NCBI GenBank assembly: GCA_965205505.1
Contig: CBDBHB010000008.1
Span: 928,001 to 992,000, forward strand
Direction: 5' to 3'
From: Acidobacteriota bacterium
GTDB lineage: Bacteria > Acidobacteriota > UBA890 > WLXD01
Length of the DNA: 64,000 nt
This document shows positions 2,852 through 21,447 of the stretch, piece after piece. The notes beneath the pieces are model-generated. The model saw nothing but the letters and a program-made list of their open reading frames with translations, ran no database searches and was not told the DNA's origin. Both the position numbers and the translations under genes were made by a program. How positions within the stretch are numbered: position 1 is the stretch's first letter; every line of letters starts with the position of its first letter.

Positions 2852-2924
2852 GGGCGCATAACTCAGCGGCTAGAGTGCCATCCTCACACGGTGGAAGTCC
2901 CAGGTTCGAATCCCGGTGCGCCCA
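2852..2924 (+). tRNA. tRNA-Val(CAC), CCA not encoded
   Basis: Acceptor stem GGGCGCA/TGCGCCC, anticodon arm CCATC-CTCACAC-GGTGG, T-loop GGTTCGAATC. Confidence 0.96.
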
Positions 2925-3086
2925 CTCTCTCCAACCTCCTGTGGTCAAAGGGCTTCTCGCCTACGTCAGGTTCCCCCTCCGATTCCTCGGGGCGGCGGGC
3001 TGATCACGCCCCTGTCGCTCCAATCTGATTTGCATCAGACTGCTACGGCAGCATCAAGAAGTTCGAACATAGGTGAGAGGGCATCC

Positions 3087-5053
3087 ATGAAGAACCCCGC
3101 GGCCGACGCTAGAGACTTCGCGAGGCTGCGTTGGCTACTGGCCGTCGCCGTTGTCGGTGCGTGTGGCCCGGCAGACGGACCCGGTGGGCGGGCGGTGACC
3201 AATGCTGGGGTAGACGAGCCGTCATCGAGCACCGTGCAAATCTCTTCTGATTCGACGCCGTTGCCGCTCGACATGATGCTCTCCGGCAGCGATCTGGCAG
3301 CTCCGGTCGACAACGCCGGCTTCTATCCCCCCAGCGACGCCACACCGGCTCCGGCGCTTGCTGTGCGGCTTGCCATCGAGCAGACGCGGATGCTGTTTGA
3401 ACCCGAGATCCCGCAGCCGGTGTGCGATGGCTCGGCGGTCGAGCTGGGCGGGTCGTGCCGGGGTGGCCACGACAAGCGCCTGTTGCCCGCGTTCACTCTG
3501 GACTTGTTCACCGCCGGCGAAGTTCTCGCCGCGATTCAGATCGGCGAAATGCTTGGAGACGAACGCACCGGTGGTAGCCGGAGCTACTGGCACGTGATCC
3601 CGCAGTACGGGCGTGTGTGGCGACAGCCCGGCGATGGCGACTGGTCGCGCGCCGCCTTCGCCCTGATGTTGGTACATGACATGGAGAATCACGCCCATCA
3701 AGGCCTCGCGAGTTTTCTATACGCCGGTGGCGAGGTCACCGATCTGCGGTTTCAGTTTGTCCAGCAGACGGCGCCATTTAACATTCCGGTGCACTTCGTC
3801 GCCTGGGGCGCGGCGAAAGCGTCGTTCGAAGCGGTGGCATTCGGCAATCTCGAGGCCCGGCGAGCCCGGGTCGATTCAGAGTTGGCGGCGAGGTTGCCGC
3901 TGCGACCCTGGGGCGAGTTGGTGGCGGCGTTGGCGGACGAGGGTTTGCCAGAAGCAACGCTCGAGGGTTTTGGCGGCCTGCTTCCGGACGACTATGTGGT
4001 CGCCAAGGGCCCTGGTCCGCGACGGCGTTGTCTACCACCAGGGATCGCAGACCCCCTACGGGCCCTATCCGTATCCGCAGGAGATGCGGTTCGGGCCGCG
4101 ATCGGTGGCCAAGTCGGTTACGGTGCCCCTGGCGCTCGGTCGTCTGGCGCAAGTCTACGGTCCCTACGTGCTCGACCTTAAGATCGGCGACTACGTCGCC
4201 GGGCTGGATCCCGAGTACGACGAAGTGCGCTTCATCGACGCCGCCAACATGGCCACTGGCATGGGTGGCCATGGAAGCTCAGTTACCAGTCCTAACAGCA
4301 CCGGCGATGGCTACGTCGACGACACCTATGACGATTGGTACAACGGCGCGTTTTCGAACGCCGAGAAGATCACCAGCATCACCGAGAACGGCTCGCCGTA
4401 TCCCTGGGGAGCGGGGATCGTCATGCGCTATCGCGATCGCGACTTTCACCTGCTCGGCGCTGCGACCGACGGGTTCCTGAGGTCGGCCAGGGGCCCGGAC
4501 GCCGACATCTGGGAGATGCTCGAGGAGGAGGTCCTCGCACCCATCGGCATCCATCACGCGCCGATCGTAAGGACGCGCGAGGCCGATGGAGAGTTAGGTC
4601 TGCCCTGGTTTCATGCTGGCATCTACGTAACCCTCGACGACGTGGCCAAGATTTTCACCCTGTACCAGAACCTCGGCCAACACGACGGCGAGCAACTCCT
4701 GCACCGGGGGCTGGCCGCCCAGATCTTCAGCACCGAGGGCGCGATCACCAAGGAAACGGATCTCTCCGTCGCTGCCGCATTCGGCCCGACGCGCGCCAGT
4801 GCCGCTGGCAGCCGGCGAGGGACTCTACAAGATGGGTTTCCATCTCACGCCGCATGTCGATCTCGATGGCGGCGCGGTCGTTTACTTGCCGGGCGCCTTC
4901 GGCGCCGGCTCCAACCAGGTAATCATGTACCCGCAGGGTCTGATCTCGATTCGCATGGCCAAGGTATGGGACTGTAGCGAATGCCAGGGGCTCTCCGGTC
5001 CGGAAGGCACGATAGCGGCGGTCAATAGGTTGCTCGGCACGCTCGTGCGCTAG
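3087..5053 (+). CDS. Serine hydrolase (beta-lactamase/PBP fold) lipoprotein with two frameshifts
   Basis: Lipobox-like VVGAC; SxxK (RSVAKS); EEVLAPIGI; three overlapping ORFs join near 4008 and 4795. Confidence 0.75.
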
Positions 5054-5094
5054 CGCGGCCCTGTTGAGCTCGCTCGACTCGAAAGCTCCTCATC

Positions 5095-5230
5095 GGGTAC
5101 TGTCAAGTTAACTCGAAATCGGCAAAACAACGCGCGTGACCCGTAGGACTGGAAACCCCTGTTATTCGGGCGTTTGCGGTCTGGGCGAGGTGCCTAAGCG
5201 GGCAAGAATCAGCTTAACTTGACAGTACCC
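5095..5230. mobile_element. MITE-like element with 17 bp terminal inverted repeats (IS6-like ends)
   Basis: GGGTACTGTCAAGTTAA (5095-5111) and TTAACTTGACAGTACCC (5214-5230); no ORF inside. Confidence 0.85.
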
Positions 5231-5634: not shown

Positions 5635-6648
5635 ATGGAAATGACCAAGCTGCGCAGTTGGATCCTGTTGTCCCTTGCCCTACCCACCATGGCCATTGCC
5701 AGTTCGGCCAGCCCGCTGTCGCACCAGGTGCCTCAGTACCGCGGCGAGGTCAACGCGATCCAGACGGACGTGTTGGTTCTGGACGACCAGGGACTGCCGA
5801 TGGTCGGTCTGACGTTGGACGACTTCGAGGTCTACGAGGACGGCGTCAGACAGCGGCTGTCCAGTGTAGAGATGATCGGTTCGCGCTCTGACGAGGCGAC
5901 GGTGGAGGTTACGCCACGCCGATTCGTCTTCGTCATCAACCGGCTGGGCGCCACGCCCGTATCGTTGGTGAAAGCCCGAAACGCGCTGGAGGGCTTTGTC
6001 ACGACCTTTCTGACCGACGACGATAAGGTCATGGTGGTCGACATCGGCTATACGGTCCGAGTGCTTCAACCATTCTGCGGCTCGAAGGACGCGACCATCC
6101 GCGACATTCGTAATCTCCCGCTCCTGCGCGTTGACTACCCGCATCACTCGCACTACGGCGAGCGATATGTCTTCGAGGCACTCGAGAGCCTTGGCGAAGC
6201 GCTCGGAGACGTTCCCGGCCGCAAGATCGTCATCTTGCTGTCAAACGAGCTGCACAGCCGGTATGGCGAAGACATCGACGACACGATCGATGCACTCAAT
6301 GAATCCAACAGCACCGTCTATTCGATCGACCTGGAACTCGTGTACCAGCGCGTGCGCCGTCGCTTATTCCAGCGTCACACTCGCTATGCAATCGAGGGTC
6401 TGTTCCCACTCGCCAATGAAACCGGCGGTCGCTACTTCTACAACCAAACGAGGTTCGAGCGTCCGGTTCGACGCATTGGCGAGGAAAACAGCAGCTACTA
6501 CCTGCTCACCTTCACGTCGAGCAATCGTGCGCTGGACGGCGAGTATCGGAAGCTGCAGGTAAAGGTCAAGCGGCCGGAAATGAAAGTCGTCGCGCGGCGC
6601 GGCTACGTAGCCCCAAGAGTCGACGAAGCCGGCCTTGCGGGCGGGTGA
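5635..6648 (+). CDS. VWA-domain protein (acidobacterial VWFA-related type), secreted
   Basis: Signal peptide; GLTLDDFEVYEDGVRQ, PGRKIVILLS, LANETGGRYF, YYLLTF, DGEYRKLQVKVKRP..ARRGY. Confidence 0.88.
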   Translation: MEMTKLRSWILLSLALPTMAIASSASPLSHQVPQYRGEVNAIQTDVLVLDDQGLPMVGLTLDDFEVYEDGVRQRLSSVEMIGSRSDEATVEVTPRRFVFVINRLGATPVSLVKARNALEGFVTTFLTDDDKVMVVDIGYTVRVLQPFCGSKDATIRDIRNLPLLRVDYPHHSHYGERYVFEALESLGEALGDVPGRKIVILLSNELHSRYGEDIDDTIDALNESNSTVYSIDLELVYQRVRRRLFQRHTRYAIEGLFPLANETGGRYFYNQTRFERPVRRIGEENSSYYLLTFTSSNRALDGEYRKLQVKVKRPEMKVVARRGYVAPRVDEAGLAGG

Positions 6649-7561: not shown

Positions 7562-7922
7562 CTCTCTCTCCTTGGTACGCGTGTCAGGCGCTGGACCGAG
7601 TGCGAACGGGTTGGTGAACGTGGGAGGCCGGCAGAAGGAGAAGCTTCCGCTGCTCTGCAGCTTCGCGCCAGTCTCGGCTGTCGTGGGCTAGCAAGGGTTC
7701 CCGCAATATCGGGTGACCGCGATCCCGCTCCCAGCCATCGAGATCGGGGACGGGCGTCAGGATCATCTTGGCCATGAAGGCGAGAGCCTGTAGCTTCGTG
7801 CCTGCCCTTAGGCCAGGATAGATCAGATCCGGCTGTGCGATGTACCGTCGGGCCGCCGTCTCGGAAAGACTCCGGCGGCCTGCCGGTGATCTCTTGAACG
7901 TGCCTCGGCGGGACCGCGGCGT

Positions 7923-8083
7923 GAGTACCGATTCGAAGGCTTCCGTTTCGAGATCGACTCCGGCTTGCTGTATGACGGGGGGGGGGGCGAGGTGGTGCTG
8001 CCGCCGCGAGCCCTGGCGGTGTTGGTGTGCTTTCTGGAGCGGCCCGGGAGCGTCCTGACGAAGCACGAGCTGCTCGCGTGTGT
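7923..8083 (+). pseudogene. Truncated OmpR/CadC-type winged-helix domain
   Basis: EYRFEGFRFEIDSGLLYDGGGGEVVLPPRALAVLVCFLERPGSVLTKHELLACV, cut by an IS21-like end. Confidence 0.7.
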
Positions 8084-8166
8084 ATTTCGGTGATGGTGAT
8101 CGCTCATTACGGAAACGTGATCAGCCATTACGGTTGATCGTGATCACCCATCGGAGCGAAGCGACG
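8079..8166. mobile_element. Isolated IS21-family-like terminal sequence
   Basis: TGTGTATTTCGGTGATGGTGATCGCTCATTACGG...GTGATCAGCCATTACGG...GTGATCACCCATCGGAGCGAAGCGACG: TG end with reiterated internal motifs. Confidence 0.6.
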
Positions 8167-8221
8167 GATAGGTTATCTCCTAGTGAGTGAAGCGTGCAGA
8201 GATGGTAGCCGTAGAGGCTGT

Positions 8222-8461
8222 GGAGCCTGTGCGACGGCTGGCATCGACCCGCCTGTGACGTTCCATTAGTTCCGAAGCCACTATGCCAGCGCCTACCTCA
8301 TGAACCGCGGATCGCCGACGGACTTGGCCGAACAGCTCGGCTATTCCGATACCAAGATGATCGAGGAGAACTACAAGCACTTGGTCGCACGATGGAGGTC
8401 GGAGCAGGTGCAGCGGACAGGCCGTCGCTCGGCATCAAGCGTGGCAAGGTGCGGCGAATGA
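8222..8461 (+). pseudogene. Tyrosine recombinase/integrase C-terminal remnant
   Basis: AGIDPPVTFH*FRSHYASAYLMNRGSPTDLAEQLGYSDTKMIEENYKHL matches the H-x-x-R...LGH...Y box, with an in-frame TAG. Confidence 0.8.
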
Positions 8462-8650
8462 GGAGACCGCGGTGAGCGTTGGACCGCTGCTGTTGGCTCT
8501 GGCACGCGAGTGTCTTGGGGGTTGGATTTAGTGATCAGGTGAAGATTGTTTGGGTGATGGTGCTTAGGGCGCGTACCATCTATCATCAGAGCTTGAAGAA
8601 ATGGAGCTGGATTTCGAGGCCTACACCTCGATCCTTGAGGAGACCTGACA

Positions 8651-9862
8651 ATGAAGAAGAGCGACCGCGAGCTGGGCATGAACCGGGAGATCAACCGTCG
8701 CGACTTGCTGAACGGAGCGAGCATCACGATCGCGGGAACGGTGCTCGCGCCGGGGGCCTCGGACGCTAGCACCGCTTGGATGGTGCCAAGTCCTCCACCC
8801 ATAGATGAACCTGTGCCAACAGGGGGTACCGGCCACTTCCTGTATGTAGCGACTCCTGGTATCAGAGATTATTTGGGCTATGGGGGTCACGGATTGCTGG
8901 TTTTTGATATAGACAACAATCACAAATTTGTAAAACGAATTAGCACCAGGGGGTTCCATGAAGATGGCAGCCCATCAAATGTCAAGGGCATTGATGTCAG
9001 CGTGCCGCTCAACAGTGTCTATATCACCACCTTGGAAGGTATGCAGCGAATAGATCTGAGTACGGAAGAGGTGCTGTGGGACATCGCTTTCGAGGGCGGC
9101 TGTGACCGTATGTCAATTTCACCTGATGGAATGACCATGTATTTGCCATCATTAGAAAAAGAGTTTTGGAATGTCGTTTATACCGAAACCGGTGATGTCA
9201 TTGCCAAGATCGTAGTAGATACCAGTGCACACAACACGATTTACGGTCCTTCAGGAACTCGAGCATATATGGCGGACTATAAATCTCCCTGGTTGTACGT
9301 TGCAGATACCAAAACGCACACAGTCGTACAGAAAATAGGCTTTTTTAGTGGAGCTGTTCGACCGTTTACCATCAAGAGCGACGAGTCGCTTGTGTTTGTG
9401 AACGTTGATGATTTGCTGGGATTTGAAGTGGGTGATTTGAAGACAGGAGAAAAGGTAGCGAGTGTTCGGGTCCAGGGTTGGGACAAAGGTCCCGTACAAC
9501 GACATGAAAATCCAAGTCACGGTATAGCTTTGAACCCAGATGAAACAGAGATATGGATTAGCGATGGCCACAATATGCGAATGCATGTTTTTAGCGCAGA
9601 AGCCCCTTATCAACAGCTCACCACCATTGCACTACGTGATATGCCGGGTTGGGTCACTTTTAGTATGGATGGTGAGTATGCCTATGCATCTAGTGGCGAA
9701 GTGATTCATGCCAAGACACGGAGAATTTTGTATTTGTTGCAAGATGACAATTACAATACCGTTTGCAGCGAAAAGATGATTGAGCTACATATGCAAGGCG
9801 GCACAGTAACCAAGGCAGGTGACCAATTTGGCTTGGGTAGATTGCATGTAGCAGGAGATTAG
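8651..9862 (+). CDS. YncE/YVTN-like beta-propeller with Tat signal; low-GC body
   Basis: Propeller repeats (SISPDG, HNTIYGPSG, HGIALNPDE, GWVTFSMDG); leader INRRDLL; visibly AT-richer after about 8790. Confidence 0.85.
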   Translation: MKKSDRELGMNREINRRDLLNGASITIAGTVLAPGASDASTAWMVPSPPPIDEPVPTGGTGHFLYVATPGIRDYLGYGGHGLLVFDIDNNHKFVKRISTRGFHEDGSPSNVKGIDVSVPLNSVYITTLEGMQRIDLSTEEVLWDIAFEGGCDRMSISPDGMTMYLPSLEKEFWNVVYTETGDVIAKIVVDTSAHNTIYGPSGTRAYMADYKSPWLYVADTKTHTVVQKIGFFSGAVRPFTIKSDESLVFVNVDDLLGFEVGDLKTGEKVASVRVQGWDKGPVQRHENPSHGIALNPDETEIWISDGHNMRMHVFSAEAPYQQLTTIALRDMPGWVTFSMDGEYAYASSGEVIHAKTRRILYLLQDDNYNTVCSEKMIELHMQGGTVTKAGDQFGLGRLHVAGD

Positions 9863-10026
9863 GGTTGAGTAGAAATTCGGGTATCCGTCTCAACCGCTAC
9901 ATGCCAGCAATTCAGAAAGCGTAGTTTCGAGTACGCCACGAGCTCGCCGTCCTCGATCGTGACCGCAGTAGCCAACGGGTTGCCGTCGTCCATCGTCACG
10001 ATGTCGCCGCCCCTGATCCCACTCCT

Positions 10027-12012
10027 TCAGGTTCGCTCGGCCCAGGGATATTGGAACTCGGGCCGAATGACGTCGGTGATCAGCTCTTGGACCGCACGGT
10101 GCGCCTGGTCGAACGCCGCCTGTGTAAGACAACTCGCGGCCGCGTCGGAGTTCGCGATAGCGATCCGCCCGAACCGCTTACGGCCCAATACCCAGGGAGC
10201 CTCGTCGTACCCCCAGTCGGGGTCGAAGAGGTCATTGCCCGCTCCCGCGTACCCGTGGGGCCAGCGGTTGACGAAGATGGCCTCGATGTCCCGGGCGGGA
10301 TCGAAGCCTCCCTCCCCCAGGGCACGAGCAAGCTGATCCCTGATGCCACGCTCGAACGTTTCGAACGACATGGCCAGAAGCTCCTCCCGTACGGCCCGCC
10401 ACTGGTCCCGTACGGGGAGCCCCGGAGCGATCGGAGATGCCCAGAGCCCTACGACGACCGGTTCGTCGGGCAACTGGGCGGTCTGGTAATCCCCGAAGCT
10501 GTTGCTGTAACCGTCAAGACTGACACTTTCGAAGTAGGCGCCCGGGCAATGGATGCGCGCCACACCGAGCCGCTCGAACGCTCGCCAGCCGCGAACCACG
10601 ACGTTTCCCGCAACGAAGGGTCTGCGCACCGCCATATGCAGGTGTTCTTTCTGGTCCTCCGGCAGCTCGGGACACAGATACGGGACCACCGAGTTGTAGC
10701 ACGCCATCACGCAGGTACCTGCGCGCACGCGATGCGCCTGGCCGTCCCGTACGTACGTGATCTCCACCGCGTTCGCCTTTGCCCGTTCGCCCACGTGGTG
10801 AGCATTCACCACCGTGCTGTTGAGACGGATGCGCACGTCGTTTTCCGCCCGGTCGAGGGTCGAATACCGGACCCGCGTCGGCACCGAATCGTTCATCGTC
10901 TCGCCCGGTAGCGAACCCGGAATCAGCCAGCGCACGAGCAGGCGGGCGACGCCAGCGTTTCCGTCGGGGAAATGCATGCCATCGAACGGATTCTCCAGCC
11001 CGTGGAATCCGTCTCTCGGCGGCGGCTCCCCGAGCCCGAGGCCCTGCAGCCCGGGTAAACCGCTGTACCGGAACGCAGCCCATCCGCTCAACGTATCGAT
11101 ACCGGCGATGCCATTGGCATCCGGGGCGCGGCGCTTGAAGAAGGGGATCACGTCCGGGTGGACGCCGACGACGTTCAGCAGATAGTCCTGATAGCTCATC
11201 TTGCGGAGCCGAGCGATCTTCTCCTCCACCGACAATCCGGGGAAGTAATCCTCCTGCGTCTGGTACAGCTTCGCGATGTCCTTCTGCACCCGGTCCGAGA
11301 GCGGCGTCTTCTGAAGCCATTCCGTCCACGCCTCCGGCTCGTCCGATCCGGGCACTCCTACAACCAGCCGATCCTCACCGAACGTCTCCTCGTCGAACAA
11401 GACCGCGCTTCCCAAACCCGGCTCTCGCGCCCGTAAGCTTCGTCCCACGTTCGCACGCCTGTACACCTCCGCATCCAGACCGATGTCGTGCATCAACTCC
11501 AGGCCTTCGTACGTATAGGCTCCCGTGATGTACGTCGTGCCTCCCCAGCCGATGACCTGGCGCCCGTCGACCATGGCCTCGTTCCGCTTCGCGTGCCCTC
11601 CGAAGTCGTCATGGTTCTCCAGAATCAGGACCCGAGCCTCAGGCATCGCCTTCCGGAAGTAGTAGGCCGCTCCGAGACCGCTCAACCCGCCACCCACCAC
11701 GATCAGGTCGTACTCTTCCCCTGTTTCCTGCGGGTCGTCCCACGTCTCGCCGAGCCGCATGCCATGAGCCACCTCGAACGACCCCGGATGGCTGCCCCGC
11801 ATCCCCGTACGTGTCGGCGGATAGTACGTCTCCTGGCTCGCAGATTGATCGACAACTGGAGATGCGGCCGGAGCCAGCCGGGCATCGCGCCCCTGCGCCC
11901 CCACATCCCCCGGCGCAACGACCGCTCCCGCGATCGCGATGCTCGTTCCGCTCACGAAGTCGCGACGGTTGATTTCCCGGTTCATGCCCAGCTCACGATC
12001 GCTCTTCTTCAT
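10027..12012 (-). CDS. Spermidine dehydrogenase (SpdH)-like Tat-exported FAD oxidoreductase
   Basis: INRRDF leader, YYPPTRTGMRGSHPGSFEVAH, VVGGGLSGL, DDFGGHAKRNE, NRWPHGYA, RIAIANSDA. Confidence 0.88.
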   Translation of the reverse strand: MKKSDRELGMNREINRRDFVSGTSIAIAGAVVAPGDVGAQGRDARLAPAASPVVDQSASQETYYPPTRTGMRGSHPGSFEVAHGMRLGETWDDPQETGEEYDLIVVGGGLSGLGAAYYFRKAMPEARVLILENHDDFGGHAKRNEAMVDGRQVIGWGGTTYITGAYTYEGLELMHDIGLDAEVYRRANVGRSLRAREPGLGSAVLFDEETFGEDRLVVGVPGSDEPEAWTEWLQKTPLSDRVQKDIAKLYQTQEDYFPGLSVEEKIARLRKMSYQDYLLNVVGVHPDVIPFFKRRAPDANGIAGIDTLSGWAAFRYSGLPGLQGLGLGEPPPRDGFHGLENPFDGMHFPDGNAGVARLLVRWLIPGSLPGETMNDSVPTRVRYSTLDRAENDVRIRLNSTVVNAHHVGERAKANAVEITYVRDGQAHRVRAGTCVMACYNSVVPYLCPELPEDQKEHLHMAVRRPFVAGNVVVRGWRAFERLGVARIHCPGAYFESVSLDGYSNSFGDYQTAQLPDEPVVVGLWASPIAPGLPVRDQWRAVREELLAMSFETFERGIRDQLARALGEGGFDPARDIEAIFVNRWPHGYAGAGNDLFDPDWGYDEAPWVLGRKRFGRIAIANSDAAASCLTQAAFDQAHRAVQELITDVIRPEFQYPWAERT

Positions 12013-12089
12013 TTCATATCTCCTCGAGCGTCAAGGTGTGGGCAGTGAGACAGCGCCGCTGACGCAGTGATCGAAGAATTCCCTTGGGA

Positions 12090-12249
12090 CAACACACAGC
12101 TGTAGAAGTCTGCCGTGGCCAGGCGATCCCTGTCTACCTCGATGCCCAGACCGGGTCGATCCGGTGCCACTACTCTCCCGCGGCCCAGTAAGTTGCCGTT
12201 CTTCATTCCAAACTCGAAGGCCTCCTTGGGCATCGGCGCTTCGAAGTAC
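12090..12249 (-). pseudogene. 3' remnant of a mandelate racemase/enolase-superfamily gene
   Basis: YFEAPMPKEAFEFGMKNGNLL...RPGLGIEVDRDRLATADFYS is nearly identical to the C-terminus of 20137-21447; cut at the IS3 end. Confidence 0.85.
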
Positions 12250-14763
12250 TGACCTGACCCCACGGTTAGTACCACGTCTTATCTCAGTAACTCGGTGCTT
12301 GACCCCAAGGGGTTGTTGAGTACCAGGCGAAGTTTAGGATTCGGTAGTTCCGAAGCTTCAACAACAGCCAGCCTCCTGGCGAACTCGGTGGTTCGATCGC
12401 CCAGTGAGCTGTGCGGTCTGCATGCGGTATTGTACTGCAAGCCTCCAATCTCTCGATCAGAACCTTTCGCCTCGCGTGAGCGATCGTAGAAGATCAGGTC
12501 GGCGTTGAGGCATTCGTCGCGAAGCCGTCCGTTGAAACTCTCGACGAACGCATTCTCCACGGGCTTTCCCGGCCGAATGAAGCTCCAACTGCACGCCTCT
12601 TCGGTACGCCCAGGAGTCCATCGCCTCGGGAGTAGAATTCCGAGCCATTATCGACGGTGATGACCCGTGGCAACGCCCCGGCAAACGACAGCCTACTCGA
12701 GTGCTCCAGCCACCGCCTTGCCGGTCATCGACACGCTTCCGGCTCACGTAACGGACATTCACGGCTAAACTGATCGACCACCGTCAGCACCCGAAACGGC
12801 CGGCCACTCTCGAGCCGATCGGTCACGAAGTCCATGCTCCAGCGCTCGTTGGGCCGCTCTGCGGGCGGCAGCACAAGCCGTATGTGACTCGCCCGCTTGC
12901 GCCGTCGCTTTTTGGTCCGTACCTCCAGCCCCTCCTCTCGATAGATCCGCTACACTCGCTTGTGGTTCACTACCCATCCCTCGCGGCGTACGCAACACGC
13001 ACAACCTCCGATACCCGAACCGCGGACGCGTCGCGGCGAGCTCGCCAAGACGACGCCGCAGCACGGGGTCGTCCGGTCCTTGTGCTCTGATACCGATGGC
13101 TGGTGCGCGACAACTCGATCAGCCGACACGCTCGACGCTCACTGACACGGAACCCAGTCCTGCAGGTACCGCACCACCTCGCGCTTGCGCGCCGGCTTCA
13201 CACCTTTTTTGACAGCACCTCCTGGAGCATGTGCTTGTCCAAGCTCAGATCTGCCACCAGCTGCTTCAACTTCCGGTTCTCATGGCGGAGTTGTTGTAGC
13301 TCCCGAAGTTCGGCCACAGCCCATCCCGGCGAACTTGCGGCGCCACGTGTAGAACGTCTGCTCGCTGACGCCCAGCTTGCGACACACCTCCTTGATACCC
13401 GGCGTGCCCGCCTCAGCCTGCCGCAGCGCGTAGGCGATCTGCTCGTCCGTGTACCTCTTCCGTCTTCATCTGTCCTCCTGCTTGGAGGACGACGGTACAC
13501 CGATTTCCTAAACATGTACCCTGGCACCGTTTTCGGGGTTTGGGTCATGCTGACAAGGGGTTGTTGAGGCCGGCGAAGCGGAGCGTAGCCGGCTTCAACA
13601 ACAGCGCCTCCGGGGCCGGTGGTCGGTAGCCCAACGAGCTGTGCCGGTCGCATGCGGTTGTACTGCTGCCTCCATCTCTCGATCAGAACCTTTGCCTCCT
13701 TGAGCGTGTAGAAGATCTCGCGTTGAGCAGCTCGTCTCGGAGCTTGCCGTTGAAGCTCGACGTAGCCGTTCTCCCACGGCGAGCCCGGCTCGATGAACAG
13801 CGTGCCCACACCGCCTACCGAGCCAGTCGCGAACCGCCTCGGCGGTGAACTTCCGGTCCGTTATCGGACCGGATGTGCTCAGGTATGCCCCTTCTGCACG
13901 AACAACCACCCGAGCCGCTCGAGCACGTCCTCCAGTTGAGCTTCCGTGCCACGTCGATCGCCAGGCTTTCTCGTGTGTACTCATCGACGATCGTCAGCAG
14001 CCTCATAGCCCGACCCTCGTGCGTCCGGTGATGAACGAAGTCGTACGCCCAGACGTGATCTTTGCGCTGTGGTCGCAGCCGGATGCACGAGCCATCGCTG
14101 AGCCACAGCCGGGCTCGTTTGGGCTGCTTTGTCGGTACTTTCAGCCCCTCACGCCTCCAGATACGCTGCACTCGTTTGTGGTTCACCCACCAGCCCTCCA
14201 TACGCAACTGACGCCGTCACTCGCCGATACCCGTAGCGCCCGTATTGTCGGGCTAGATCCACGATCCGCTCCGTACAACATCTGCTCATCGCCCGGTTCT
14301 CTTGGCATGTACCTGTGTGTCGTGCGTGGTTGTTTCAGTACCCGGCACGATCCGCCTCTGGAGACGCCCAGCCGCCCCCGTACAGGTGCGCCACCGCCTC
14401 GCGCCGTCGAGCTGGGCTCAGAAGTTTCCCTCCGCGACTTCCTTCAGGATCGACAGGTCGAGCTCTTTCTCCGCCACCAGTTTCTTGAGCACGGGCGTTT
14501 TCTTTCTCCAGCTGCTTGAGCCTTCTGGCCTGGTTGACCTTCAGCCCCCCGCTCCCGCAGGCCACCGATAGGAGGTGTGCTCGGTGATCGCTAGCTTGCG
14601 GCAGGCATCCTTGACCGTCCCGCCTTGCGCCTGCTCCACTTCAGCCTCCCGGAGCTTGCGTACGATCTGCTCGGCGCTGTGCCTCTTCGTCGGCATTCTG
14701 ACCTCCCCTTTTCGACCCAGATCGCTGAGATTACCTCTGGATCCGTTTTGGGGGGTCAGGTCA
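12250..14763 (-). mobile_element. IS3-family element (outer), degraded and interrupted by a second IS3
   Basis: Ends TGACCTGACCCC and GGGGTCAGGTCA; OrfA MPTKRHSAEQIVRKLREAE from 14696; OrfB WAYDFV, IRSDNGPE, PGSPWENGYVE; many frameshifts. Confidence 0.9.
12300..13547 (-). mobile_element. IS3-family element (inner) with 4 bp target duplication
   Basis: Ends TGACCC and GGGTCA flanked by TGCT at 12296-12299 and 13548-13551; OrfA ending LSLDKHMLQEVLSKKV with A6G slippery site; Orf[19 protein letters not shown]. Confidence 0.9.
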
Positions 14764-14949
14764 GCCGACCGCGTGTGACGATCTTTTGTTGCGCCGACCA
14801 CTCGCCACCCGGGCGGCTCACCGGATCCGCAGGCAACCTTGCGCTAGCCGCTTGATGTACCCGAGTCCTAACCCAAGAAAGCGTACCCATCTGCAGACGG
14901 AAAGTACCCGCTTCCTTGCAGTTGCTCGCCGCTCTGGCCCCATGAACCT

Positions 14950-17606: not shown

Positions 17607-17869
17607 CTGAGTCAGAAATCCGTTGCATATTGTGGCGAGCGCGACCGAGGCGGATCCCAGGAGGCGCGACGACGGCGATGCAATAAGCATCGTCGAGGAG
17701 TGCCGACGCCGGAGGCGTCCGGTCCCGCCGCCACCCGGAAGGTTGGGCCGATATGGGGGCAATCTCGGCGTTGCGATTCGTCGACGAGGGGCGTGGCATC
17801 GCCATCCTCATCGCGCCTTGAGCTTGCCCCCATCTCGGCCCAGCAATATGCAACGGATTTCTGACTCAG
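17607..17869. mobile_element. MITE-like element with perfect 26 bp terminal inverted repeats
   Basis: CTGAGTCAGAAATCCGTTGCATATTG (17607-17632) and its reverse complement (17844-17869); CTAG close to both sides. Confidence 0.85.
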
Positions 17870-17873
17870 GACA

Positions 17874-19844
17874 CTAGGTTCTCTCCGCCCACGGATACTG
17901 GAATTCGGGTCGAATGACGTCGGTCAACAGCTCCTGGACGGCTCGATGGGCCTGGTCGAACGCCGCCTGCGTGAGCGAGATCGCCGCCGCATCTGAGTTC
18001 GCGATCGCGATGCGCCCGAACCTCTGGCGCCCAACGACCCACGGGGCCTCGTCGTAGCCCCAATCCGGATCGTATAGATCGTTGCCTCCCCCGGCGTAGC
18101 CGTGCGGCCAGCGGCCGACGGTGATGCCGGCGATGTCCCGGGCCGGGTCGAAGCCGCCCTCGCCGAGGGCACGGCCGAGCTGGTCGCGGATGTTGCGCTC
18201 GAAGGTCTCGAACGGGGTCGCCAGCAGCTCCTCGCGCCCGGCGCGGAACTGGTCGCGCGCCGACAAGCCGGGACGGGTCGGAAGCCGTTGTAGCCACAGC
18301 AGGATGGGTTCCTCGGGCGAGGCCGAGTGGCGGTAGTCGCCGACGTTCACGCCCCAATCCAGATCGATGAACTCGCAGAATCCACCCGGGGTGTGGATGT
18401 CTTGGATGCCGAGATTCTGGAAGGCAGTCCAGTTGCGGATCGCGACCTGCGTGTAAACGTAGGGCTTGCGCACGGCCATGCGTAGCGCCGAGGCCTGCTC
18501 GGCCGGCAGCTCCGGGCACAAGAAGGGGATCATGGCGTTGTAGCAGGCCATGACACACGTATCGGCGGCCACCGAAAGCGCCTTGCCGTCCTGCACGTAC
18601 GTCACCGTCACGCCCGACGACGCGCGACGCTCACCCGCGTGCCGCACACCGACAACGGTGGAGTTCAGGCGGATTCGCACAGGGCTCGTCGGAAGGTCGA
18701 GTTGCGAATAGCGCACCGGCGTGGTCACCGAGTCGTGCATCGTGCTCCCGGGCAGCGCCGACGGGATGAGCCAGCGCACCAAGAGGCGCGCCACCCCGGC
18801 GTTGCCGTCGGGAAAGTGGACTCCGTGGAAGGGGTTGCTCTCCGTCCCGGCGTTTCGCGGGGGCCGCGGCAGGCCGAGTCCCTGGAAGCCGGGAAACGTA
18901 TCCTCGCGAAACGCGCCCCAGGAGCTGTACGAATCGATGCCCGCCGCTCCGTTCGCGTCGCCCCGCTGCCGCAGGTAAGGGATCACATCCTCGCTGACGC
19001 CCACTACGTTCAAGACGTAGTCCTGATAGCTCATCTTCCGCAGACGATCGACCTTCTGCTCCACCGTGAGCTCCGGCAGGTAGTCGGTCTCATCGGCGAA
19101 CAGCGTCAGGATGCCGCGCTTGGCGTCGTCCGAAAGCGGCGTCCTGGACAGGTACTCCGTCCACCGCTGGCGCCCTTTTTCGCCGATCACACCACTGGAG
19201 AAGGAGCCCCAGGGCTCGCCAACGACGAGTCGATCTTCACCGAACACTTCGCGGGTGAAGAACACTGCCGACTGGAGGCCCAGTTCGTCATACAGGCTGC
19301 CGGAGCTGCTGCGTGGCAGGTTCGCAGCGTCGAGGCCGATGTCCTCAAGCAGCGAAACGCCTGCCGGGGGGTAGTGGCCGTCGATGAACTGGGTTCCGCC
19401 GTAGCCGATCAGCTGTCGGCCGTCGACATCGAACTCTACGCGCTTCGCATGCCCGCCGAAGTCGTCGTGGTTGTCGAGGATCAGTACGGAGGCGTCGGGG
19501 AGCGCTTTGCGGAAGTAGTAGGCGGCGGCAAGGCCGCTCAGTCCGCCGCCGACGACGACCAGGTCGTAGTGCTCGCCCAAATCCGCCGCCTCGTCCCAAG
19601 TCTTCCCGTATCGCATCTCGTGGGCGACCTCGAAGGAGCCGTCGTGGCTTCCCCGCATGCCGGTCAGCCGCGGCGGATAATAGTCGCCTGAGGCTTGCGG
19701 TACGGTGTTCTGCTGAGCCTTGCTGCGGGCATGAGCGGTCGATGAAGAGAACACCGCCCCGCCGATTGCTACGCTGGCACCGTCGAGGAAGTCGCGTCGT
19801 GTGATCTCACGATCCATCCCGAGCTCACGGTCCTTCCTCTTCAT
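17874..19844 (-). CDS. Second SpdH-like Tat-exported FAD oxidoreductase
   Basis: MKRKDRELGMDREITRRDFL after a GAGGAGG RBS; same motifs and identical C-terminus (TDVIRPEFQYPWAERT) as 10027-12012. Confidence 0.88.
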   Translation of the reverse strand: MKRKDRELGMDREITRRDFLDGASVAIGGAVFSSSTAHARSKAQQNTVPQASGDYYPPRLTGMRGSHDGSFEVAHEMRYGKTWDEAADLGEHYDLVVVGGGLSGLAAAYYFRKALPDASVLILDNHDDFGGHAKRVEFDVDGRQLIGYGGTQFIDGHYPPAGVSLLEDIGLDAANLPRSSSGSLYDELGLQSAVFFTREVFGEDRLVVGEPWGSFSSGVIGEKGRQRWTEYLSRTPLSDDAKRGILTLFADETDYLPELTVEQKVDRLRKMSYQDYVLNVVGVSEDVIPYLRQRGDANGAAGIDSYSSWGAFREDTFPGFQGLGLPRPPRNAGTESNPFHGVHFPDGNAGVARLLVRWLIPSALPGSTMHDSVTTPVRYSQLDLPTSPVRIRLNSTVVGVRHAGERRASSGVTVTYVQDGKALSVAADTCVMACYNAMIPFLCPELPAEQASALRMAVRKPYVYTQVAIRNWTAFQNLGIQDIHTPGGFCEFIDLDWGVNVGDYRHSASPEEPILLWLQRLPTRPGLSARDQFRAGREELLATPFETFERNIRDQLGRALGEGGFDPARDIAGITVGRWPHGYAGGGNDLYDPDWGYDEAPWVVGRQRFGRIAIANSDAAAISLTQAAFDQAHRAVQELLTDVIRPEFQYPWAERT

Positions 19845-20136
19845 GTTTCCCTCCTCAACCAGGGGTTTGCCTTCCTCTTTCGCGCTCATCCCGTCCCCTA
19901 AGCTCTCTCCGCCGATGAGCTCAGAGAGCTGGCAAGTCCTTGACCATTCGCACTCTATCGCCGGCAGCGTCTAGCATCAAAGGAGTACGCCAGTCCGCGA
20001 CACGCGAGACCGCTGGGCGCGCCCGTTGCCCCTCGCCAGGGGGGATGGCAATCGTTCTTGGGGGCCCAGTTGGATCCTTTCAGACCCGCCTCACAGAATC
20101 CGCCTCACGATCGGTCCCTCATGGTACGGTCCACCG

Positions 20137-21447
20137 GTGGATAACCGTCACCGGCACGAAAGCCACCGGCCAACCCGTCGGTTCCGAGCAGGGCCGATCG
20201 TTGCCTTGCTTTGCCTGCTGGTTGCCCGAGCCGAGTCTTCCTCATTGTCCGGCAGAGCCTCTCTGAATGCGGTTGAGCTCTTGACGGCGTTCTCGGGTGA
20301 GAGCGCCGAGCAATATGAGCCGTTCTTCCGCTTCGCCGAGGAAGCCAGAATCGTCGGTGTGGAGATTCACGCCGTCGGAACGGAGAGCACCACGGCCCGG
20401 TATTCCGGTAGGAACAGACCTTCGAAATCGGTCAACAACATCTTGCGGCTCGCGACCGCGGACGGATTCGAGGGTATATCCGGCGTGGCGTCCTATGGAC
20501 GAGAGTTCAGCCGAGAGCGTCTGCTGGAGTTGCAGGGCGTTGCCGCTGATCTCCTTGCCCTGCAGTCACTGGACCCGGTCGAGGTCGGGACGATGCTCGA
20601 GCGGACGAAACCCGGCTTGAGCGATGCAGCTCGCTCGAGCATCGATATCGCGCTGTGGGACTTGGCGGCACGTAAGGCAGATCGTCCTCTCTACCAGCTG
20701 CTGGGGGCAAAGCGGGACTCGATCGAGCCCTACGCCAGCCTGCCCTTCTACGATTCGCTTCCCGAGTACGTCGACGCGGTCAACGAGTACGCCAAGCTCG
20801 GCTACAGGACCTTCAAGTTCCACGTCTGGGGCCTGATCGAGGAGGACTCGCGACTCGTGGAGTTGGTCCAGCAGACATTTGCAGACTCTCCCTATCGCTT
20901 CATGATCGATATGGAGGGAGCGTACGGCTTTGAGGACGCCCTCAGGCTGGGCGGGGAAATGGATGAGCGACTGTTTGTCTGGTTCGAGGGACCGATCAAC
21001 GACGAGCTTCTGGAGGAGTATAGGCAGCTCAGGAGCAGGCTCGCGGTACAGATCATTCCTGCCGGATACCGCATCTATTCTCCCGAGTTCATCAGACAGG
21101 GGATCGAGGCCGGTTCATGGGATGCGGCCAGAGTCGATGCAACGGCGATCGGCGGGATCTCGAAAGTGCTCGAGATCTTGACGATCACCAACGATGCCGG
21201 CCTGGCGATCGAGATCCAAAGCTGGGGCCACTCGCTGGCCCAGGCAGCCAACCTCCACCTGATGCTGGCCAATGAGCGCACCCGGTACTTCGAGGCTCCG
21301 ATGCCCAAGGAGGCTCATGAGTTCGGGATGAAGAACGGCAACCTGCTCGATCAGGGGCGGGCCGTTGCGCCGCAGCGGCCAGGTCTGGGCATCGAGGTAG
21401 ACTGGGATCGCCTGGCCACGGCCGATTTCTACTCCTACTCGAAGTAG
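20137..21447 (+). CDS. Mandelate racemase/muconate lactonizing enzyme family protein; start uncertain, possible signal peptide
   Basis: IDIALWDLAARKADRPLYQLLG, GYRTFKFH, MIDME, WFEGP, RPGLGIEVD. Confidence 0.85.
   Translation: MDNRHRHESHRPTRRFRAGPIVALLCLLVARAESSSLSGRASLNAVELLTAFSGESAEQYEPFFRFAEEARIVGVEIHAVGTESTTARYSGRNRPSKSVNNILRLATADGFEGISGVASYGREFSRERLLELQGVAADLLALQSLDPVEVGTMLERTKPGLSDAARSSIDIALWDLAARKADRPLYQLLGAKRDSIEPYASLPFYDSLPEYVDAVNEYAKLGYRTFKFHVWGLIEEDSRLVELVQQTFADSPYRFMIDMEGAYGFEDALRLGGEMDERLFVWFEGPINDELLEEYRQLRSRLAVQIIPAGYRIYSPEFIRQGIEAGSWDAARVDATAIGGISKVLEILTITNDAGLAIEIQSWGHSLAQAANLHLMLANERTRYFEAPMPKEAHEFGMKNGNLLDQGRAVAPQRPGLGIEVDWDRLATADFYSYSK

Follow-up and report, generated by a model that had tools for sequence, protein, structure and literature searches.

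An acidobacterial beta-propeller gene of Bacteroidota type that appears to have captured the translation start and twin-arginine leader of an SpdH-type flavoprotein gene

How does a gene that crosses from one bacterial phylum into another come to be translated and exported in its new host? The question is raised by a locus within a 64,000-nucleotide stretch of an Acidobacteriota genome (the window; the genome is called G000), in which two convergent open reading frames (ORFs), 8651..9862 on the + strand and 10027..12012 on the - strand, are nearly alike in their first 35 residues. The first, of 403 amino acids and starting MKKSDRELGMNREINRRDLLNGASITIAGTVLAPG, is predicted to encode a secreted beta-propeller; the second, of 661 amino acids and starting MKKSDRELGMNREINRRDFVSGTSIAIAGAVVAPG, encodes SpdH1, a flavoprotein resembling spermidine dehydrogenase, whose leader is of the parental type. 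We find that the propeller gene is very probably a natural fusion of two parents, an SpdH1-type front and a Bacteroidota-type propeller body, an origin that is well supported. Orthologues of the same architecture are present in genomes G002, G003 and G004 and at locus L013.

A sequence-only reading of this DNA had noticed that the two genes begin alike and that their likeness extends upstream. Both observations are confirmed. In a repeat search, inverted arms at 8650-8756 and 11907-12013 are 89% complementary over 107 nucleotides (nt), and the two leader copies lie 3150 nt apart in inverted orientation. A leader core of 20 nt occurs exactly twice in the window, where the expectation from shuffling is 0.02 and none of 100 shuffles reaches two. 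In a MAFFT alignment the similarity goes on for ~27-30 nt upstream of both start codons, through the ribosome-binding site (RBS) GAGGAGA. The untranslated patch that holds this site, 8622..8650 (+), aligns with 12013-12043, and leader and RBS together (8622-8756) have their counterpart on the SpdH1 side at 11907..12043 (-). The patch also lies upstream of the orthologues L011, L012 and L013, and that of G003 diverges above about -14; in L013, positions 5974-6106 match 12039-11907 of the window at 91%.

To which family does the shared leader belong? The neighbour at 10027..12012 can be assigned to the SpdH family by its match to 7d9j (phmmer E 2e-133, residues 54-644 of 661), by Pfam NAD_binding_8 at 1e-10 and by the motif VVGGGLSGL visible in its sequence. 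When residues 1-40 of the propeller protein were searched against 5.8 billion proteins, the 39 matches comprised 5 propellers and 34 flavoproteins with PF13450, with no third protein family among them; 17 of the 34 flavoproteins were read, and all 17 are SpdH-like and continue YYPP..TGMRGSH. As the earlier reading had anticipated, leader and body belong to different families, SpdH flavoproteins and Bacteroidota-type propellers. Within G000, eight SpdH paralogues carry DRELGM..I.RRDF followed by YYPP..TGMRGSH, and the propeller is the only other bearer of the leader. All eight read KxDRELGM..I.RRDF, and two of them (10027-12012 and 17874-19889) lie in the window within 8 kb. Plasmid-borne SpdH relatives of Duffyella, Deinococcus and Gemmatirosa have leaders of the form I(T/A/S)RRDF(L/V)NG, that of Gemmatirosa also bearing a DRLGM extension, and a Sphingobium relative has a more divergent twin-arginine leader, LSRRQLVGG. 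Members of the SpdH family are thus predicted to carry a twin-arginine translocation (Tat) leader across several phyla.

The propellers present a different picture. We collected 80 related propeller loci from species-representative genomes, 3 of them from Acidobacteriota (L011, L012 and L013) and 77 from Bacteroidota/Verrucomicrobiota plus one metagenome-assembled genome (MAG) labelled Williamsia and one 'uncultured bacterium'. Distant propeller homologs with the same leader would have spoken against a graft, and none of the 77 non-acidobacterial loci has an SpdH-type leader. Three Cyclobacterium loci (L038, L045 and L073) have an n-region reading MNRRKLF, unrelated to the SpdH-type leader. 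Because the leader is found on SpdH proteins across phyla and is absent from these 77 loci, it belongs to the SpdH family and passed from there to the propeller, not the reverse.

The body of the gene bears the composition of another lineage. In windows of 200 nt, guanine plus cytosine content (GC) is 0.62 at 8600-8799, 0.465 at 8800-8999, stays at 0.43-0.475 until 9899 and is 0.61-0.68 from 9900. The abrupt fall in GC that the sequence-only reading had placed near 8790 is therefore real, but begins nearer 8765: GC at third codon positions (GC3) is 0.92 in codons 1-38 and 0.45 in codons 39-403, against 0.79 in the SpdH-like neighbour and a genome mean of 0.74 (3244 long ORFs). The body, 8768..9862, has a GC of 0.466, and the chimera is one of only 2 of the 3244 long ORFs with GC below 0.50. 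The other, outside the window at G000:C8:560961-562197 (GC 0.48, GC3 0.40), is by the look of its sequence a NAD-dependent formate dehydrogenase and probably another recent import. Four Bacteroidota propeller loci have GC3 values of 0.34-0.46, which bracket the 0.45 of the chimera body. Within the acidobacterial propeller clade GC3 runs from 0.45 (window and G004) to 0.55-0.56 (G003 and G002), a spread that suggests incipient amelioration. The propeller core is 84.2% identical in nucleotides to that of L014, from a Flammeovirgaceae MAG, and third positions are 73% identical, hence synonymous sites are far from saturated between the two phyla.

In accordance, the tree places the gene among Bacteroidota. 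In a tree of 95 rows (IQ-TREE quick mode, LG+G4), the nine leader-bearing rows form one clade with an approximate likelihood-ratio support (SH-aLRT) of 100; it includes L013 and the metagenomic propellers P0001, P0004, P0005 and P0006, is nested deep among Flammeovirgaceae, Roseivirgaceae and other Cytophagales rows, and adjoins P0007 and P0008, which have Sec-type (general secretory) signals. Rows L095 and L100, from G071, serve as distant rows only and carry none of the conclusions, and two further paralogue rows also support the root. Constraining the 82 Sec-type rows, a group named after the tree had been viewed, to one clade costs 72.5 log-likelihood units (approximately unbiased test, p-AU 0.0019). 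Close orthologues are present in 4 of the 5 genomes of genus g1, G000 included. They were not found in G001 (92% complete), which has 34% paralogues only, nor in 6 other genomes of family f1 or 15 genomes of the sister family f2; G001 nevertheless holds SpdH1. The propeller paralogues native to G000 are 36-39% identical to the chimera, with a GC of 0.60-0.64 and Sec-like signals that have no twin arginines. Judging by composition and phylogeny, the body appears to have entered the lineage of the acidobacterial genus by horizontal transfer and to have retained the base composition of its donor. With a body of Bacteroidota type and a leader otherwise confined to SpdH, two parentages and both directions of transfer are established, and the core proposal of the earlier reading, that a horizontally acquired propeller took over native signals for translation and export, is supported.

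Where do the two parents meet? Similarity of the window to the genome's own SpdH1 stops at 8756. Metagenome contigs of SpdH1 type track the window further, to 8762, and then continue GAQG..., and nucleotide homology to L014, L016 and L076 begins at TAGCACCGCTTGG, from 8767. Because SpdH1-type similarity ends at 8762 and Bacteroidota similarity starts at 8767, the join is established to within 5 nt, at 8763..8767 (+), an interval whose bases can be attributed to either parent. Upstream of it, 8651..8762 (+) holds codons 1-37 and the first base of codon 38 from the SpdH1-type parent, with the inverted repeat and the GC3 of 0.92, and encodes the n-region MKKSDRELGM, the twin arginines R16-R17 (NRRDLL) and the h-region; downstream, 8768..9862 (+) holds the end of the original signal (S-T-A-W), a linker, the 7-bladed propeller and the stop codon. 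The protein sequences agree. SpdH1-type proteins of other organisms read ...APGASGAQG where the propeller P0001 reads ...APGASGASTAW, and Sec-type propellers read VA-STAW where SpdH1-type proteins read GASGA-QG, so that one alanine is common to both. The join falls at this shared alanine, and the likely peptidase site of the propeller parent, S-T-A / W, follows two to four residues later. The fusion thus replaced the n- and h-regions of the Sec-type propeller signal but retained its last residues, A-S-T-A / W, with the probable signal-peptidase site.

The same junction is found in L011, L012, L013 and L093, and four acidobacterial assemblies share it. Contigs from three public runs also cross 8763-8767: record 4 of X4 (8300-9844, 7 differences), records 9 and 10 of X5 and record 17 of X8 (8650-9166, no difference). 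The three runs belong to three studies. More broadly, at least 0.56 of the words sampled from 8400-9200 are present in 14 runs from 9 studies, and one of these runs may be the source sample. The four separate genome assemblies weigh more heavily against misassembly than the contigs do, and together they establish that the assembly is sound at this point, where the earlier reading had allowed for a misassembly.

Did the graft take place once or repeatedly? Over 112 coding nt, the five propeller leaders are 94-96% identical among themselves and ten SpdH1 leaders 87-97%, whereas propeller and SpdH1 leaders are 79-90% identical, with no excess within a genome. The bodies of the acidobacterial orthologues are 89-97% identical to the window in nucleotides. 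In their DNA the orthologue leaders are more conserved (94-96%) than the bodies (89-90% in 3 of 4 pairs), which fits faster synonymous change in a compositionally unbalanced body. Given that the leader-bearing clade is single and that leaders show no within-genome excess, a single origin is established, and the graft would have preceded the divergence of the species that carry the chimera, at least four.

What the leader does for the propeller is a separate matter. Tat signals carry an (S/T)-R-R-x-F-L-K-like motif at the boundary of n- and h-regions. In the window protein a Tat-like motif is present as N15-R16-R17-D18-L19-L20-N21, followed by a moderately hydrophobic h-region, GASITIAGTVLAPGA, and, by inspection, a small-x-small site, S-T-A / W. 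The twin arginines are present in all nine leader-bearing propellers, even in the diverged P0005, and the frame is open from M1 in all nine; the RBS GAGGAGA is conserved 7-8 nt before M1. G000 has TatC (PF00902) above the cut-off at three places, two of them full length. A Pfam scan of the chimera gave no TAT_signal match at E<=0.01, and the paralogue SpdH2 reaches 17.3 bits on the Tat model TIGR01409. Since homology to SpdH1 starts only ~27-30 nt before the ATG, the RBS was grafted and the promoter probably not. A promoter scan of 8000-10100 gave no sigma-70-like site, a scan that does not cover other promoter types, and a terminator scan of the same stretch gave one terminator-like site inside the gene, no more than chance. 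An Rfam scan of 1-24000 gave no RNA family at the leader, the tRNA at 2852-2924 being the sole match. We consider it reasonably likely that the leader sends the propeller to the periplasm through Tat; at the least it would give the gene a host-adapted start and signal.

Several points weigh against a single graft that serves Tat export. TIGR01409 gives the chimera 16.1 bits over residues 1-60 and 12.1 bits over the whole protein, against a cut-off of 16.7. The rest of the propeller family, like the 36-39% paralogues, uses Sec-like signals, and therefore the fold does not need Tat. Per pair, the leaders differ in 3-7 non-synonymous and 0-3 synonymous codons; such an excess is usual for signal peptides and is no proof of constraint beyond the n-region and the twin arginines. 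Contigs of a metatranscriptome run, X16, cover 8848-9048, 9060-9282 and 9653-9907 at 92-96% likeness and none lies on the leader, but assembled contigs, even from an RNA library, are no evidence of transcription, and nothing follows from a stretch that they leave uncovered. The propeller tree was made by a quick method and its root rests on long paralogue branches. Finally, the leader of the adjacent SpdH1 is only 86% identical to that of the propeller, and SpdH1 proteins from elsewhere match better; because these outside leaders are the closer ones, the fusion may have formed elsewhere, and the finished chimera may have spread laterally.

This last point touches the origin that the sequence-only reading had proposed, a copy of a native leader from the SpdH-like gene nearby. 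That the SpdH1 lineage is the source stands, yet the adjacent gene did not recently supply the leader, as the graft is older and the adjacency is not conserved; as to a native source, the leaders most like it are those of SpdH1-type proteins from other organisms (FLNGAS...GASGAQG), identical to P0001 through residue 39. It is conceivable, although we hold it to be distinctly the lesser possibility, that a sister lineage with the SpdH1 leader FLNGASIAIAGAVLAPGASGAQG gave rise to the complete chimera, which then spread laterally into the species of the genus as a ~1.3-kb unit. The identity of the P0001 leader extends to the SpdH proteins P0124 and P0128, P0125 differs at position 30 only, and SpdH1-type contigs of run X8 (record 18) differ from the window leader at 5 of 91 nt. 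L013 and P0001, P0004, P0005 and P0006 fall in the same clade, and the gene was not found in G001. Moreover, each of the four assemblies sets the chimera between flanks of its own, which differ up to the very edge of the unit: the stretch shared with the window begins at 8262 in L011, 8525 in L012 and 8605 in L013 and ends at the stop codon, and L011 and L012 have transposase genes near the chimera. Beyond the stop codon, the window and G003 alone share a 55-nt hairpin tail (9863..9915, +, GGTTGAG...CTCAACC). An integron cassette was considered for the 1.3-kb unit and rejected, the four sequences downstream of the orthologues having no attC-like element in common. Set against a sister-lineage origin, a search of 401 Acidobacteriota genomes from 227 genera found the leader 44-mer (at most 3 mismatches) in genus g1 alone; an SpdH copy lies within 12 kb of the propeller in 3 of 4 genomes, which fits a local origin; and the divergence of the orthologues resembles that of SpdH1 leaders and is compatible with vertical descent and rearrangement.

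Could the leader be a relic without Tat function, with the protein exported by Sec despite its twin arginines, or made from a downstream start and left in the cytoplasm? The sub-threshold TIGR01409 score and the Sec-type signals of the rest of the family are in favour of this, as are the genus g1 copies, which read RRDLL and not the consensus RRxFL. However, the open frame from M1 and the invariant twin arginines of all nine sequences, together with the conserved spacing of the RBS, speak for a leader in use; SpdH paralogues show F-to-L or L-to-V variants at the same positions; and the next methionine after M10 is M44, where a start would delete the whole signal although all relatives are secreted. 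We regard a relic as unlikely, and Tat export by the grafted leader as the better account.

A bolder proposal, which we put slightly lower still, is that the 135-nt 'RBS plus Tat leader' is a module that moves within the lineage, shuffled among genes by repeat-mediated recombination. Its borders are sharp, at about -27 and +112, and the proteins that bear it belong to two families unrelated to each other. Outside the window, the leader has an orphan copy at C8:497212-497284: its 73 nt are 96% identical to the propeller leader, with TTG for ATG, unrelated sequence follows, and the same fragment is present as a 350-nt contig in X4 and X8. That the orphan is the 5' end of a decayed SpdH gene was examined and rejected, for tblastn with SpdH1 gives residues 1-27 only (E 2e-8) and no credible body. 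It is flanked by two copies (C8:496731-497010 and 497303-497587) of a repeat of ~280 nt, which looks like a miniature inverted-repeat transposable element (MITE) because each copy matches its own reverse strand at ~69%. This repeat has dozens of copies in the genome at 97-98%, one of them at 17621-17877 of the window and another just upstream of a second SpdH1 copy on contig C9 (C9:1431016-1431294). If the module does move, the export of the foreign propeller, and perhaps its regulation, would be coupled to that of the SpdH amine dehydrogenases, and the conserved n-terminal extension KSDRELGM might serve to recruit a leader-specific chaperone or to place translation under common control.

That the leader was copied recently from the adjacent SpdH1, or that continuing gene conversion between the two inverted copies, separated by 3.1 kb, keeps them alike, is an idea that the arrangement in the window invites, and SpdH1 copies also lie 9.5 kb from the propeller in G004 and 12 kb in G002. 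We consider it very improbable. The G000 propeller leader is 84-86% identical to the SpdH1 leader of its own genome and 84-86% identical to those of G002 or G004, orthologous leaders are 94-97% identical, and diagnostic differences are fixed in each group (GACCGCGAG vs GATCGTGAG; LLNGAS vs FVSGTS). In G003 the nearest SpdH1 is ~460 kb away. SpdH1 and its upstream stretch are present in two copies in each of G001-G004, 93-97% identical to the window copy over 181 nt. The adjacency seen in the window is probably secondary, since the SpdH1 module (10013-12137) has a second copy at C9:1428893-1431017, 95.3% identical, and is flanked by repeats and insertion sequences. Two such sequences border the module, nested at 12246..14764 (no strand assigned): an outer element of ~1.55 kb (12249-12581 and 13548-14764, ~25 copies at ~97.5%) and an inner one of ~1.3 kb (12250-13547, ~20 copies at ~94%). 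Least credible of all is that the join is an assembly artefact, or that an acidobacterial Tat-propeller passed to Bacteroidota and then lost its leader: the window does come from a metagenome-type assembly and composition does change sharply at the join, but four assemblies have the same join, as do contigs of three more runs, each from a different study, the composition of the gene fits Bacteroidota and not the host, the acidobacterial clade is nested, and the leader belongs to the SpdH family across phyla.

We therefore return to a single old graft, for which the following course may be proposed. A secreted propeller gene of a family centred on Bacteroidota/Verrucomicrobiota would have entered the lineage of the acidobacterial genus horizontally; the first 37-39 codons of the fusion, its start codon and ~27 nt of RBS-bearing 5' leader would have come from a flavoprotein gene of SpdH1 type. 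The fusion may have come about by illegitimate recombination as the foreign DNA integrated in or beside an SpdH1 copy. The join would have fallen inside the signal peptide, swapping out the Sec n- and h-regions and keeping the propeller's own A-S-T-A / W end. This would have been a single event before the carrier species diverged, after which the ~1.3-kb unit landed in different surroundings rich in insertion sequences in each genome; in the window genome, the 2.1-kb SpdH1 module and the nested insertion sequences would have come to adjoin the chimera.

What kind of protein was acquired? An AlphaFold2 model of the chimera (mean predicted local distance difference test score, pLDDT, 79.7; predicted TM-score, pTM, 0.79) is all-beta, with 28 strands from residue 61, and leaves residues 1-56 unstructured (pLDDT < 50). 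The best Foldseek match in the PDB is 1l0q, a YVTN propeller (E 9.3e-17, TM 0.63), among at least 500 matches with E<=0.001, and the body can accordingly be modelled as a 7-bladed beta-propeller. Repeat-level matches in Pfam and NCBIfam are weak (TIGR02276 22.1 bits, NHL 26 bits). An orthologue of YncE was ruled out, as the equivalog NF052280 gives 20.2 bits against a cut-off of 400; the fold class alone is common to both. Of 8000 scored propeller candidates, 5621 pass E<=0.001, and the best 120 are 66-90% identical. Among 18 sequences read, 6 (79-90% identical to the window) start MKKSDRELGM..INRRD, and the other 12 start with short hydrophobic Sec-type signals ending ..(A/G)(S/T)AW. Many His, Asp, Cys and Arg residues are invariant and for that reason suggest an enzyme or a metal site. 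Names met in Foldseek searches of the PDB and the protein atlas are generic propeller or 'YncE family' ones only, and the neighbourhoods of 20 Bacteroidota/Verrucomicrobiota loci have no conserved neighbour (the largest cluster being 3 loci), hence genomic context gives no functional lead. Loci L014-L090 encode propellers 56-80% identical to the window, with Bacteroidota and Verrucomicrobiota interleaved in the tree, and the copy of the MAG labelled Williamsia adjoins a Chitinophagaceae sequence. The family appears to be a very conserved and widely exchanged secreted protein.

Several other features of the region deserve a record. Between the two convergent genes lies a 72-nt repeat (9940..10011, no strand assigned), with copies at G000:C8:494574-494645 (97%) and C8:604478-604549 (86%); short contigs with it were found in runs X4 and X8. 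The ~1.1 kb upstream of the chimera (7562-8650) is without a convincing ORF; its part 8262-8650 is kept at 96% in L011, and 8078-8238 is 86.5% identical to C9:3033282-3033443. Directly upstream of SpdH1, 12009-12275 (-) encodes the C-terminal fragment of an enolase-superfamily dehydratase, 81% identical to the end (21285-21432) of an intact gene at 20026-21447 (+), and the C9 duplicate of SpdH1 bears the same fragment. Further off, a stretch of 2.2 kb that starts inside the 3' half of the tRNA gene (2852-2924) and runs over 2885-5095 is 99% identical to 9992-12200 of L011, where a 39-nt tRNA end is repeated at 12332-12370. This stretch looks like an element integrated at the tRNA, and its two long ORFs have no NCBIfam match.

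Both parents of the chimera being identifiable, the locus offers a view at the nucleotide level of how a gene may be made to work after crossing phyla, through the RBS, start codon and export leader of a resident gene. It would represent a natural signal-peptide swap, in which a propeller of Sec type has kept a Tat leader while it diverged into several species. As such it bears on how strictly export route and passenger have to match, and provides a ready leader-passenger pair for Tat targeting of an all-beta protein. The acidobacterial genus is itself notable for its eight SpdH paralogues and for the many insertion sequences and MITE-like repeats that crowd the genome.

How does the chimera compare with known systems? 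SpdH of Pseudomonas aeruginosa (PDB 7d9f-7d9j) is matched over its full length by the neighbour in the window; the propeller has the leader alone in common with the SpdH family, whose members bear this type, and no part of the enzyme. YncE/YVTN 7-bladed propellers (1l0q; NF052280, TIGR02276) share the fold, and some relatives are named 'YncE family protein' in their sources, but the window family is conserved beyond the needs of a scaffold, with 65-90% identity across phyla. A limited literature search, which is no proof of absence, found no account of a host Tat leader grafted onto a transferred gene. Among B1 metallo-beta-lactamases, signals of signal peptidase II (SPII), signal peptidase I (SPI) or Tat type are predicted in different taxa (PMC13616975), so that there too homologous secreted proteins appear to be Sec-type in some lineages and Tat-type in others; those signals are predictions of untraced origin, whereas the source of the leader can here be followed at the nucleotide level, with the junction within 5 nt. 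A closer parallel is blaNDM-1 (PMC4212838), where a foreign metallo-beta-lactamase gene was joined in frame to the promoter and 5' end of aphA6. In both cases an acquired gene has gained, through an in-frame join, its opening codons and the expression signals upstream of them from an unrelated gene of the resident genome, and the finished chimera then spreads; in the window, the 5' part with its upstream bases is homologous to a resident unrelated gene, and the remainder belongs to a foreign family otherwise without that part. Unlike blaNDM-1, the captured piece is here a complete targeting module (RBS plus Tat n- and h-regions, 37-39 codons) with no captured promoter, its homology starting from ~-27; the export route has probably changed; the leader-donor family still has eight copies in the same genome; and no resistance gene is involved. 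Thus the locus is a clean case of a foreign gene fitted with host signals, not an unprecedented one, set apart by three points: a whole targeting module taken from an identifiable resident family, a cleavage site kept from the passenger, and persistence through speciation.

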